Positions 22,403 through 26,595 of a stretch of 56,113 nucleotides of DNA are shown here, one piece after another; the stretch's first letter is position 1, and each line of letters opens with the position of its first letter. The notes under the pieces were generated by a model. The model saw only the letters and a list, made by a program, of their open reading frames with translations, did not search any database and was not told the origin of the DNA. Origin of the DNA: a virus (lineage: Duplodnaviria > Caudoviricetes); the IMG/VR virus record IMGVR_UViG_3300016722_000161, positions 1 through 56,113 of that record; one strand, given 5' to 3'. A program made the position numbers and the translations under genes.

Positions 22403-24217
22403 TTAAGCGGTTTCTTGTGTAGATAACACAATGCCGGACAGAACAAAACAAACGCATGGGAGTGCCACCCCGTTGCCCCACATCTTATATTCGGCGGCGT
22501 CGGAGTGCGGGTTGTTCAGCCATTTGATAATCTGCCTACGGCTCTTGGGCTTTTCGCTTGTGCCGATAATACGGCGGTGAGTTTCCCAAACCTCAGCCCA
22601 GAACGCGATTTCATCCTCGGTTGGGTTATCCGCGCCGAGACCGGCGCACCAGCCGTCCGGGAAGCCTTGAAGCCGGGCGCATTCGGTTGGCGTCAGCCTG
22701 CGGACGATGTAGTCCGGCTGGTTAACAAGCTGAGGGTCTTTATAGTCACGCGCCATCAAGGTGGCGGCCTTTTCCTTGTGTATCTCTGAAAAGCCGCCGG
22801 TGGTCATGGCGTAGGCAACGGCGTGGCGGTCGACTGTATTTAATGTAAAAGACACATCTTCATCAATGCCACTGCCTTGGGGCCCGTTCTTTTCCTCACG
22901 TCCAATCATGGAACCCTGCAAGGCAACCACGGCAATACCGCCTTGATTGCAGCCGGGATTTCCGCCGTTTGCGTCGATGGTTCGAGAAGTGGCAGCTTTG
23001 TAAATGCCGCTGCGTGGATTATCTGACATCATGGAATTGCTCTTGTCGGAGCAGATGCCGTAGGCGGTTGGCACGAAAACCGTCTGGTCATTGTTGCAGC
23101 CGAGTGTAGCGGATTTGTCATCCTGTATCAGCGCACCTTTGCCGCCGCCCTCACATCCGGAGCGTATTTTAAGCGTTTTCGGCGTATCCAGTACAAGCGG
23201 AGTGTTCATGCCGCCCGTTCCCATACGGGAAGTGAGTGTCTGCACCATGCCGTCTTCTGAAACCTTGACACGACCGTCGGTCGGATGATTTTCGATTGCG
23301 ACACCAGGCACGACACCGGCCCGGAGCGTGGGAGAGCGTTCTTCCTCAAACCCCACACCACGGCTCTTCGCCGAATGCTCTGTGCAGAACCCGCTCGACT
23401 GCATGACGCAGGGCGGGTGATGGGCTTCGGCGCGGAGCGTAGCCGTCGTATCTTCGGTTATATCCATACGGTCGCCGCCTTGGTCGTTCAGGCAGGTTAT
23501 GCCGCTGCCTGTTGTTCCAGAGCCGTTCTCAGCATCTCCGGCAGTTCTTTGCCACGGGCTTCCGCACGGCGCAAAATTCCTTGACACGCCTTCCGGCTCA
23601 AATAGTATTTCTCCGGCACATTCGCCTGCAAAATCCACGACAAGGTAGATTCTGCGGCGGCGCTGGGGTACTCCGAAATATTGCGCGTCGATAGTTCTGT
23701 AAGCCAGCGACCATCCGTCTCCCATGTAGCAGTCGGCGTAAGACCACCGCCCGTTGTCAGGCGCAGGCACCTCGGCGTTTTTCCCGGTGACGCTGACAAC
23801 CGCTTCGAGGACTGCCTTGAAATCGGCCCCTTGGTTTGAACTGAATGCGCCGGGCACGTTTTCCCAGACAGCGTATCTTGGGTATCTGCCATTGGTCTTG
23901 CACCTCATTTCCTTCATAATTCGTATTGCTTCATAAAAAAGGACGGATTGGCTTCCGTCCAGACCGGCTCTTTTCCCGGCAACTGACATATCGGTACAGG
24001 GCGAACCGAAGGTTATAATATCCACCGGCGGTAAATCTGCACCGTTCAGCTTGGATATGTCACCGTAGTGTTTCATCTGTGGTATCCGCTTGGTCGTTAC
24101 CCGTATCGGGAACGGCTCAATCTCCGAAGCCCAGAGCGGTTTGATGCCGCAGAGCAGACCGCCGAGCGGAAAGCCGCCGGAGCCATCGAAGAGGGAGCCA
24201 AGTGTTAATTTACTCAT
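22403..24217 (-). CDS. DNA (cytosine-5) methyltransferase with a long variable region
   Basis: Motif I LFDGSGG, IV GSPC, VI ENV, VIII QRRRRIY, IX RRLTPTECARLQGFP, X GNGV. Confidence 0.95.
   Translation of the reverse strand: MSKLTLGSLFDGSGGFPLGGLLCGIKPLWASEIEPFPIRVTTKRIPQMKHYGDISKLNGADLPPVDIITFGSPCTDMSVAGKRAGLDGSQSVLFYEAIRIMKEMRCKTNGRYPRYAVWENVPGAFSSNQGADFKAVLEAVVSVTGKNAEVPAPDNGRWSYADCYMGDGWSLAYRTIDAQYFGVPQRRRRIYLVVDFAGECAGEILFEPEGVSRNFAPCGSPWQRTAGDAENGSGTTGSGITCLNDQGGDRMDITEDTTATLRAEAHHPPCVMQSSGFCTEHSAKSRGVGFEEERSPTLRAGVVPGVAIENHPTDGRVKVSEDGMVQTLTSRMGTGGMNTPLVLDTPKTLKIRSGCEGGGKGALIQDDKSATLGCNNDQTVFVPTAYGICSDKSNSMMSDNPRSGIYKAATSRTIDANGGNPGCNQGGIAVVALQGSMIGREEKNGPQGSGIDEDVSFTLNTVDRHAVAYAMTTGGFSEIHKEKAATLMARDYKDPQLVNQPDYIVRRLTPTECARLQGFPDGWCAGLGADNPTEDEIAFWAEVWETHRRIIGTSEKPKSRRQIIKWLNNPHSDAAEYKMWGNGVALPCVCFVLSGIVLSTQETA
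23497..23892 (-). CDS. Overprinted 131-aa ORF in the +1 frame of the C5-MTase (M.EcoHK31I beta-like)
   Basis: SD GAGGTG 8 nt before ATG 23892; C-terminus STLSWILQANVPEKYYLSRKACQGILRRAEARGKELPEML. Confidence 0.7.
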   Translation of the reverse strand: MADTQDTLSGKTCPAHSVQTKGPISRQSSKRLSASPGKTPRCLRLTTGGGLTPTATWETDGRWLTELSTRNISEYPSAAAESTLSWILQANVPEKYYLSRKACQGILRRAEARGKELPEMLRTALEQQAAA

Positions 24218-25442
24218 CGGAGAATACCTCCGCATATTTCATCGTGACACCGTCGCGGATAACGGAAACACTATTTACATTCCCAGCCTGTTCAATGTAC
24301 CGTTTTACAATGACGTCGCAGTATTTCTCGTCAAGCTCTATGGTGAAGCAAATTCTGTCGGACTGCTCACAGGCGATGAGCGTACTGCCGCTGCCGCCGA
24401 AGGGGTCAAGCACGATGCAGTTTGTGAGGCTGCTGTTCATAATGGGATATGCCAGGAGCGCAATCGGCTTCATGGTGGGATGGTCGGCGTTTTTCTTCGG
24501 CTTTTCAAATTCCCAGATGGTGGTCTGCTTGCGGTCGGCGTACCAGTTGTGCTTGCCTTTTTTCTTCCAGCCGAACAGCACAGGCTCGTGCTGCCACTGA
24601 TAGGGCGAGCGTCCAAGCACCAGCGACGGCTTTTTCCAGATGCAGCACCCGGAAAGCTGAAAGCCCGCGTCCGCGAACGCTTTGCGGAAGTTCAGACCTT
24701 CGGTGTCGGCATGGAACACATAAATGGAAGCGTCCTGCGCCATCGCCGCTTCGGTGTTCGTAAACGCCGCCAGCAGGAAGTCATAGAACGCTCCACTTTC
24801 CATATTGTCGTTTTTGATTTTACCCGCCGTTCCTTCATAGTTGACGTTGTAAGGCGGGTCTGTCACCACCAGATTTGCGAGCTTCACGTCCATCAGAGCG
24901 GTAAAAGTGTCGGCTTTGGTGGAATCGCCGCAGACAAGCCGATGCCGACCGAGCAGCCACACATCGCCCGGCTTGGTGACGGCAGGCTTTTGCAGTTCCG
25001 CATCCACATCAAACTCATCGTCTTTAATACCGTCTTTCAAGCTATCCTTGAAAATGTCGTCAATCTCTCCGGGGTCGAAGCCCGTGAGCGAAACGTCGAA
25101 GTCGGCGCCCTGCAGGTCGGCGATAAGCAGAGCCAGCTTGTCTTTATCCCAGTCACCGCTGATTTTGTTAAGTGCGACATTGAGCGCCTTTTCCTTTTCG
25201 GCGTCCATCTCGACCACCACGCACTCGACCTCGGTGATGCCCATATCAAGTAGCACCTTCAGACGCTGGTGACCGCCGACGATATGAGATGTAATCTTAT
25301 TCCATATAACGGGTTCAACATAACCGAACTCCTCAAGCGAGCGTTTCAGCTTTTCGTATTCGGGATCGCCGGGTTTGAGGTCTTTGCGTGGGTTATAGTC
25401 GGCGGGAAGGAGCCGTTCAGTCTGTATCTTTTCTATCAGCAT
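24210..25442 (-). CDS. ParB-like N-terminal domain plus N6/N4 DNA methyltransferase
   Basis: PADYNPRK..IVGGHQR ParB-like domain; DPPY, HPTMKP, DPFGGSGST. Confidence 0.93.
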   Translation of the reverse strand: MLIEKIQTERLLPADYNPRKDLKPGDPEYEKLKRSLEEFGYVEPVIWNKITSHIVGGHQRLKVLLDMGITEVECVVVEMDAEKEKALNVALNKISGDWDKDKLALLIADLQGADFDVSLTGFDPGEIDDIFKDSLKDGIKDDEFDVDAELQKPAVTKPGDVWLLGRHRLVCGDSTKADTFTALMDVKLANLVVTDPPYNVNYEGTAGKIKNDNMESGAFYDFLLAAFTNTEAAMAQDASIYVFHADTEGLNFRKAFADAGFQLSGCCIWKKPSLVLGRSPYQWQHEPVLFGWKKKGKHNWYADRKQTTIWEFEKPKKNADHPTMKPIALLAYPIMNSSLTNCIVLDPFGGSGSTLIACEQSDRICFTIELDEKYCDVIVKRYIEQAGNVNSVSVIRDGVTMKYAEVFSDE

Positions 25443-26595
25443 ATTTCTCCGCCGCCTTTCTGATTTCTTTGTACCTATCGTAATCCTCCCACGGGAAGAG
25501 ACAGGAATTGAAATGTCCGTATACCGACGTGTCCTCGTATATCGCAGTGCGCAGACGCAGCTTTTCAATGATTGCCGCCGGGCGTAGATTGAACACGGAC
25601 AGCACAATATCTCGTAGCTGCTCATCGGTCAGAGCACTCGTGCCGAAGGCGTTAATATTAACCGCCACGGGGTCAGCTTTGCCAATGGCATAAGAAAGAG
25701 CGACCTCGCATCTTTCAGCCAAGTCGCTCCATACGATATTTTTTGCGATGTACCGCGCCATGTAAGCGCCGCTGCGGTCGACCTTGGTGGGGTCTTTGCC
25801 GCTGAACGCTCCACCACCGTGAAGAGCAAGCCCTCCGTAGGTATCCACCATTATCTTTCTGCCCGTCAGCCCGGTGTCGGCGGCGAGTCCGCCCTCGACA
25901 AATCTGCCGGAGGGATTGATGAGGATTTCGGTGTTGTCATCAAACGGAAAGTCCTCGAAGCACTGCCACAGAACATTTTGCTTAATGTCGGAGTAAAGCT
26001 GCTCCTGCGTTTTATTCTTGTCGTGCTGAACGGAGACCACAATCGTTTTCACGCGCTTGGGCTTTCCATCCTCATATTCGACCGTGATCTGCGCTTTGCC
26101 GTCCGGCAAAATGCCTTTCACAATTTTATCCTTGCGGATGGTATCCACACGCTTCACAATTCGGTGTGCCAGCACCAGCGGGAGTGGAAGCATCTCGCGG
26201 GTCTCGTTGGTGGCGTAACCGTAAACAGTCCCTTGGTCGCCCGCGCCGATAGAGGCATAGCGTTCCTCGCTGCCGTTTCTGGCTTCGAGGGCAGTAGTCA
26301 CTCCGGTGTCGATATCCTTGCTTTGTTTATGGACGAACACGAAAACCGTGAACTTCCAAGGGTTATATCCAGCCTTGCGGAGGACTTCACGCACCTCCCA
26401 GCGGATGTCAACTTTGCCGTCGCAGGTGATCTCGCCCGCAACGATAATTTTGCCCTTGGTCGCCATGACCTCGCAGGCAACACGGGATGATTTGTCTTTG
26501 CGCAGACAGGCGTCAAGAATGCTGTCGGCAATGATGTCGCACAGCTTATCCGGGTGTCCGGCGCATACGCTTTCTGCTGTTTTGTAAGTAGTCAT
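25417..26595 (-). CDS. metK: S-adenosylmethionine synthetase
   Basis: ESVCAGHPDK, GAGDQG, DTGLTGRK, GGGAFSGKDPTKVDRSGAY. Confidence 0.96.
   Translation of the reverse strand: MTTYKTAESVCAGHPDKLCDIIADSILDACLRKDKSSRVACEVMATKGKIIVAGEITCDGKVDIRWEVREVLRKAGYNPWKFTVFVFVHKQSKDIDTGVTTALEARNGSEERYASIGAGDQGTVYGYATNETREMLPLPLVLAHRIVKRVDTIRKDKIVKGILPDGKAQITVEYEDGKPKRVKTIVVSVQHDKNKTQEQLYSDIKQNVLWQCFEDFPFDDNTEILINPSGRFVEGGLAADTGLTGRKIMVDTYGGLALHGGGAFSGKDPTKVDRSGAYMARYIAKNIVWSDLAERCEVALSYAIGKADPVAVNINAFGTSALTDEQLRDIVLSVFNLRPAAIIEKLRLRTAIYEDTSVYGHFNSCLFPWEDYDRYKEIRKAAEKYADRKDTD

Follow-up and report, generated by a model that had tools for sequence, protein, structure and literature searches.

The DNA analyzed here, called the window, is a complete provirus record of 56,113 bases (IMG/VR record IMGVR_UViG_3300016722_000161, positions 1 to 56,113; Duplodnaviria, Caudoviricetes). 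Its minus strand carries a gene for a C5 DNA cytosine methyltransferase, and inside this gene lies a second open reading frame (ORF) on the same strand, the product of which is named ALT. The features of the locus are:

22403..24235, minus strand: gene of the C5 DNA cytosine methyltransferase, 610 amino acids, which hosts the nested ORF (PF00145, E 4.3e-37; TIGR00675, E 2e-35)
23905..23907, minus strand: TGA that ends the open +1 frame, at a distance of five codons before the nested ATG
23901..23906, minus strand: Shine-Dalgarno (SD)-like GAGGTG, formed by the main-frame codons M-R-C, with an 8-nucleotide spacer before the nested ATG
23890..23892, minus strand: nested start codon ATG, taken from the main-frame AAT-G of Asn-Gly
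23497..23892, minus strand: nested +1 ORF of 131 amino acids plus stop, contained in the 610-amino-acid ORF (from the ORF listing)
23506..23697, minus strand: conserved nested core, residues 66-129, overlapping motif VIII and the variable linker that follows it
23651..23665, minus strand: main-frame motif VIII (QRRRR), whose +1 reading is part of the nested core
22682..22702, minus strand: main-frame motif IX strand (RRLTPTE), on which the EKYYLS segment of the nested protein is predicted to dock

The main frame harbors motif I (FxGxG, residues 16-21), motif IV (PC, residues 78-81), motif VI (ENV, residues 125-127), motif VIII (QxRxR, residues 191-195), motif IX (residues 512-518) and motif X (residues 587-593) on a single chain, which identifies the protein as a C5 methyltransferase. 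Motifs VIII and IX are separated by a variable region of approximately 290 residues. The first positions of the two frames are 343 nucleotides apart (24235-23892), a distance of 1 modulo 3, which places the nested ORF in the +1 frame. As the TGA at 23905..23907 bounds the ORF, the nested ATG is the first start codon of this frame. The ORF covers main-frame codons 115-245 and encodes a basic protein with an isoelectric point (pI) of 9.55. A preliminary description of this DNA had reported a 131-codon ORF in the +1 frame with GAGGTG located 8 nucleotides before an ATG at 23892, overlapping the catalytic motifs VI-VIII. Both statements agree exactly with the ORF listing and the position ruler, and the overlapped codons include ENV and QRRRR.

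The probability of such an open frame arising by chance was assessed by permuting synonymous codons within the gene, which preserves the protein and the codon usage. In 20000 trials the nested region stayed open in 2703 shuffles (13.5%), and some +1 run of at least 135 codons was present in 3472. As so many shuffles stay open, an ORF in a single sequence proves nothing and the case for a second gene rests on comparison. Two IMG/VR scans yielded 160 loci, from which, together with the window and five annotated phage records, 145 genes comprising 126 distinct sequences were extracted. One of them (L150) was left out of the counts because start-trimming had removed its motif VIII, leaving 125 distinct genes. 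A regular expression for the motif missed the nested domain in 27 of the 166 loci; inspection of these loci revealed the domain wherever motif VIII was found, while five of them (L107, L115, L116, L123 and L126) were without motif VIII.

The +1 frame around motif VIII is open for at least 133 codons in all 125 genes. Its upstream stop is located 79-87 codons before motif VIII in every gene. In 120 genes its downstream stop follows motif VIII by 55-87 codons, and in the other five the main frame ends first. The frequency of +1 stops in the remainder of these genes is 0.050 per codon (3060 in 60672). Among representatives sharing less than 85% nucleotide identity, all 57 were open compared to 6.4 expected from per-gene synonymous shuffles, with a median per-gene probability of 0.058. 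The start signals are likewise retained. The column homologous to the nested start contains ATG in 118 genes, GTG in four and other triplets in three, and an SD-like core occurs within 20 nucleotides upstream in 124 of the 125. The main-frame residues at this column vary (NG, DG, HG, SG and GG), and the wobble base always preserves xTG. Distant lineages also combine an SD sequence with an ATG: AGGAG in a Roseobacter phage, and AGGAGG and AGGGGG in two loci described below (L249 and L253, respectively). Conservation of the ORF across homologues, which the preliminary description had named as a check, is therefore borne out by the open frame in 125 of 125 genes, by 57 open representatives against 6.4 expected, and by ATG or GTG in 122 of 125.

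The frame under selection was examined by nucleotide entropy in the 57 representatives. Upstream of the nested ORF the main codon positions 1, 2 and 3 show the usual pattern (0.60/0.42/1.53). In main codons 196-243 the values are 1.03/0.56/0.52, so that these codons are most variable at the wobble position of the +1 frame and the codon phase is flipped to that frame. Residue entropy in main codons 201-240 is 0.55-1.0 bit in the +1 frame versus 0.8-2.3 bits in the main frame, and synonymous-codon entropy drops there from 1.3-1.9 to 0-0.44. In the 5' half, corresponding to nested residues 1-80, the dominant frame is the main one, which carries motifs VI to VIII there, and the +1 frame is little more than open. 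As judged from these patterns of variation, constraint falls on a different frame in each half of the overlap. The suppression of synonymous change that had been proposed as a further check is thus present in the 3' half, with low entropy and the phase flip, and weak in the 5' half. These data indicate that the nested ORF is very likely a real coding sequence under selection. An open frame that is only a by-product of the conserved main-frame protein, of codon usage or of a nucleic-acid signal, with no second gene, would fit the 13.5% of window shuffles that stay open and a 5' half largely dictated by motif VI. This explanation is nevertheless extremely improbable: in the 3' half the +1 protein is the better conserved of the two and most variation falls on the +1 wobble position, the number of open representatives far exceeds its expectation, ATG and GTG replace each other at the nested start, and conservation spans phages of Bacillota, Pseudomonadota and Actinomycetota.

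The nested ORF is widespread and largely absent from annotations. A tblastn search with the nested protein matched 139 phage records and 533 plasmid records, the plasmids being mostly P1-like from Escherichia. In all 12 annotated records examined, the match lies in the +1 frame relative to the frame of motif VIII. These records include P1 dmt, Mycobacterium phage Omega gp127, Vibrio phage 24, Caulobacter phage DMCA, Roseobacter phage CRP-822, Streptococcus phage Javan261 and several gut phages. The expectation that gene callers miss this ORF was confirmed, as 11 of the 12 records carry no coding sequence feature of its own for it. A search of 1.84 billion representative proteins retrieved 3564 at E<=1e-3; among the matches listed, those of similar length were unnamed or termed 'hypothetical protein', and 118 of 120 were without a Pfam domain. 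In P1 dmt (L167, OP279344.1, 2225-2719) the same +1 ORF comprises 165 codons, is unannotated and matches the family profile with E 1.8e-24; its candidate starts include an ATG preceded by GGAG, which would yield 116 amino acids. In Mycobacterium phage Omega (L168, 1110-2414) the methyltransferase is annotated as gp127 and gp128, which share one frame with a stop between them, and the +1 ORF sits within gp127.

Ordinary C5 methyltransferase genes of two Lachnospiraceae genomes and 40 relatives served as a control set. The open +1 stretch over motif VIII measures only 6-55 codons in 29 ordinary genes. Long stretches were found in just two control genes, L249 (225 codons) and L253 (155 codons), and these match the family profile with E 4.5e-11 and 3.4e-10, respectively. 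Since the 29 controls have short stretches and both exceptions match the profile, the nested ORF, among the genes compared, is the marker of a clade, and the C5 fold in general does not bring it along. L249 and L253 (genomes G018 and G038) encode ordinary-sized enzymes with open frames of 362-367 codons and full PF00145 coverage; their nested ORFs are related to the nested family and have AGGAGG or AGGGGG before the ATG. As these genes carry related +1 ORFs, the phenomenon extends beyond the large phage enzymes.

The relation between the nested frame and the enzyme varies among relatives. In 25 loci from bacterial genome contigs, five kinds of arrangement were distinguished. In six loci from Lachnospiraceae (L173-L178) the main frame comprises only 247-281 amino acids and terminates past motif VIII, and a +1 ORF that starts at the same place as that of the window continues through the target recognition domain (TRD), motif IX and motif X (423-431 codons). 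Nine loci resemble the window, with a fused main frame and a nested ORF of 128-134 codons; two are window-like with motif I located after motif X; three have the nested ORF and a separate ORF with motifs IX-X; and five are partial or otherwise broken. Split and fused forms differ by one base in a poly-G tract, which contains eight G in L173, L174, L177 and L179 and seven in L181-L189. Within L173-L189, all from Lachnospiraceae genome contigs, the tract lies at the end of the nested domain, approximately 110 nucleotides after the EKYYLS codons. A tract of eight G yields an alpha chain with motifs I-VIII and an ALT-TRD-IX-X chain, whereas seven G yield a fused enzyme and a free 132-codon ORF. 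The tract looks like a phase-variable element that alters subunit linkage instead of merely breaking the gene; the difference may instead reflect an assembly error. It is absent from the window, where no homopolymer of six or more bases occurs within the nested ORF. For split forms that are active, +1 translation from the internal start would be the only source of the TRD-IX-X half.

Other relatives combine the same pieces differently. In Faecalibacterium phage FP_Toutatis (L172, 1144-2560) the annotated gp14 has motifs III-VI and the nested domain in one frame, connected at a tract of nine G. Motif VIII, the TRD, motifs IX and X and then a second copy of motifs I-II lie in the -1 frame, for which no ATG is visible, and this arrangement may be frameshift-dependent or permuted. 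The library proteins P0026, P0038, P0095, P0130 and P0148 likewise carry a second copy of motifs I-II after motif X, ending 38-59 residues past motif I, which suggests permuted or tandem-fused methyltransferases. Free-standing in-frame homologues of the nested domain had been considered among the fused forms of the protein library and were rejected, as the DNA shows that their N-termini overlap the frame of motif VI. Among the loci examined, no homologue of the nested domain was found that does not overlap.

Such fusions bear on the question of how the domain is produced. It could be made as a C-terminal extension of the motif I-VI half, by ribosomal frameshifting or by switching of the tract length. 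Natural ORFs that join motifs I-VI in frame to the domain (P0369 with 245 amino acids and 77 member sequences, P0057 and P0015), as well as FP_Toutatis gp14, speak for this route. A frameshift product, however, needs neither an open stretch over the first approximately 45 codons of the +1 frame nor an SD sequence and an ATG or GTG right after the +1 stop, yet both are kept. In addition, no conserved slippery site was seen, and the window ORF has no homopolymer of six or more bases. Production as an extension is therefore considered improbable, and independent initiation within the gene is preferred.

The structure of the nested protein and its possible association with the enzyme were modeled. 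The monomer model consists of a disordered basic leader, a low-confidence hairpin (residues 41-62) and helices at residues 83-89, 100-113 and 119-130, with a predicted local distance difference test (pLDDT) value of 87-91 over residues 101-130. Prediction of a complex between the nested protein and the 610-amino-acid enzyme scored 0.76, compared to 0.43 for the best control. The mark applied to this score is reached by 58 of 80 solved complexes and two of 110 mismatched pairs, and is only a rough guide for the present runs with custom alignments (A2, A1). The runs share at least 49% of their contacts, and the pLDDT of the partner is at least 61. Contacts are predicted between nested residues 37-47 and main residues 163-173, and between nested residues 69-84 and main residues 180-190 and 208-221. 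The EKYYLS segment (nested residues 86-98) is placed on the motif IX strand (main residues 508-522), where main residues 512-518 pair with nested residues 87-97 at an expected error of 0.7-1.0 Å. The contact offsets differ from the offset of the shared codons (114-115), so that the contacts do not simply reproduce the overlap contained in the alignments.

These observations are consistent with an interpretation in which the nested ORF is a true second gene, overprinted on that of the methyltransferase. Ribosomes would start independently at the nested SD sequence and ATG within the methyltransferase mRNA and produce a protein of 131 amino acids. Its first approximately 65 residues would form a basic, disordered leader, which is the forced +1 reading of the conserved region from motif VI to motif VII, and its last approximately 65 residues a small, conserved helical domain. 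The product would act as a partner module that stabilises or completes the same enzyme, docking where motifs IX and X meet the catalytic domain, at the region that precedes motif VIII and the strand that follows it. In related genes the same frame continues into the half of a naturally split enzyme that bears the TRD, motif IX and motif X, and the module would therefore be either free, as in the window, or the N-terminus of a second subunit. We favor, with moderate confidence, an overprinted and independently started gene whose product is a partner module of the methyltransferase; taken separately, the claim that the product is a bound module of the enzyme appears somewhat probable.

A number of findings weigh against this interpretation. 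The open frame of the window taken alone is unremarkable, and the counts over relatives overstate the number of independent events because ancestry is shared. The sequence comparison shows conservation, start signals and selection on the +1 frame; translation, binding and a need for the product in enzyme activity are inferred. The N-terminal half of the nested protein is poorly conserved as a protein and predicted to be disordered, and the monomer model as a whole is weak, with a mean pLDDT of 60. A fold search with this model gave nothing usable (best Z 4.0), and when PDB sequences were searched with the profile of the nested family, antibody light chains at E>=0.072 were the sole matches, with no methyltransferase among them. 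Searches with the nested protein and 48 relatives returned no consistent Pfam or NCBIfam family, no NCBIfam family being common to more than one of the 49, and the nested protein had no PF00145 match at E<=1. The complex model supports binding, its score expressing the confidence of the model and not a measurement. The AlphaFold model of the fused ALT-TRD-IX-X form is unusable (mean pLDDT 35). The split forms could be switched-off or mis-assembled copies and not working two-subunit enzymes, in which case the argument for an internal +1 start that they provide falls. Replacement of a canonical segment by the nested product is unsupported in the sequence comparisons; the idea that the domain is a detached equivalent of the segment after motif VIII was dropped after hhalign comparison with 29 ordinary C5 methyltransferases (probability 0.15%). 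The sole similarity left is a short EKYY-type motif resembling that of some control methyltransferases (L240, L242 and L259).

Several of these points would also suit a translated and selected product with a job of its own, such as a gene regulator, a DNA-binding factor or a counter-defence factor, which is not a subunit of the methyltransferase. The nested protein lacks similarity to any methyltransferase motif or family, a high pI together with a disordered leader is common among regulators, and overprinted viral genes are often accessory, according to the part of PMC8227390 consulted. Such a role is rather unlikely, however. Several genomes have the frame joined to the TRD-IX-X half and others have it joined to motifs I-VI, the complex prediction outscores its controls and places contacts on motifs VIII and IX, and the ORF was seen, among the genes examined, only inside this methyltransferase clade.

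A more far-reaching form of the preferred interpretation, the partner module, is that the clade as a whole, from gut Bacillota prophages to coliphage P1 Dmt and cluster-J-like mycobacteriophages, uses an obligate multi-piece enzyme. An essential module without motifs would be overprinted on motifs VI-VIII, and in some lineages a poly-G switch would determine whether the module is a free protein or forms the N-terminus of the TRD-IX-X subunit. This extension is tentative and on present evidence doubtful. If it is true, phase variation would act on subunit architecture and not as simple on/off switching.

Long same-strand overlapping genes have rarely been established in bacteria and phages, and annotation pipelines discard such ORFs. 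The nested ORF has strong comparative support, is very widespread and is present in the model phage P1, which makes it directly testable. If the enzymes require its product to be active, their engineering and their expression in other hosts would depend on an unannotated ORF, and the reading of 'silent' mutations, codon optimisation and frameshifted 'pseudogenes' would be affected as well. This is relevant to methylome matching in strain engineering and to studies of phage anti-restriction.

Directly upstream of the methyltransferase gene and on the same strand, the window contains a ParB-N/N6-N4 methylase gene and an S-adenosylmethionine synthetase gene, which together with the C5 gene form a methylation module of three. 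The ParB-N/N6-N4 methylase ORF (471 amino acids as listed; 24210-26595, minus strand, for the two genes) overlaps the 3' end of the S-adenosylmethionine synthetase gene by approximately 200 nucleotides, and its true start is probably a later Met. The mechanical ORF listing also contains an ORF of 387 codons on the plus strand (24090-25253), which is antisense to the ParB-methylase gene.

Among known systems, the nearest precedent is M.EcoHK31I. The preliminary description had cited this enzyme, correctly, as a case in which an alternative frame within alpha encodes the beta chain; according to the parts of PMC2836561 and PMC3404938 consulted, beta supplies motif IX, which alpha lacks. The portion of PMC2836561 seen also reports that silent removal of the beta start codons abolished methylation and that supply of beta in trans restored it. 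As in M.EcoHK31I and its isoschizomer M.EaeI, the second ORF of the window lies wholly inside the methyltransferase gene, on the same strand and in another frame, and, as in M.EcoHK31I, the small chain is predicted to assemble with the large one. Unlike in M.EcoHK31I, motif IX is located in the main frame of the window enzyme, as the preliminary description had noted, and the nested chain carries no methyltransferase motif, so that by the test defining the EcoHK31I type this pair falls outside it. Since motif IX is already present in the main frame, the nested product must contribute something else. The family of nested ORFs, with its 139 phage and 533 plasmid records, is also far wider.

A resemblance of the nested product to the M.EcoHK31I beta chain, suggested in the preliminary description, was not supported by the family and atlas searches. 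Homology to the beta chain of M.EcoHK31I or M.EaeI would account for the same nested alternative-frame architecture (PMC2836561, in the part consulted), and the nearest named cluster in the atlas search was the 'EaeI methyltransferase beta subunit family'. Its value of 0.76, however, is below the lead threshold of that search, and the conserved residues 60-131 alone gave no named match. Moreover, the beta chain harbors motif IX, as stated in the sections of PMC2836561 and PMC3404938 seen, whereas the nested chain shows no match to PF00145 and shares no NCBIfam family with more than one of the 49 members. Such homology is very unlikely. Literature searches found no paper describing the nested ORF, and the words methyltransferase, methylase and Dcm are absent from PMC8788219.

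The second comparison concerns M.AquI, in which, following the consulted part of PMC3404938, alpha contains motifs I-VIII and beta the distal variable region with motifs IX-X. The window differs from M.AquI in that its enzyme is unsplit, a single frame of 610 amino acids, and in that the overlapping frame ends after 131 codons. The relatives L173-L178 resemble M.AquI, as their alpha chain ends after motif VIII and the overlapping ORF contains TRD-IX-X. Their second chain, however, begins approximately 130 codons upstream inside alpha with the nested domain, which is not mentioned in the portion of the M.AquI account seen (PMC3404938). P1 Dmt and other single-gene C5 methyltransferases of phages and prophages share with the window the same unannotated +1 ORF over motif VIII, with start positions and lengths that differ between lineages. 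If the proposed partner module is real, these enzymes would provide a second, independent case of the solution found in M.EcoHK31I, a subunit hidden in another frame, which would suggest that hidden-frame subunits are a recurrent route to building C5 methyltransferases.

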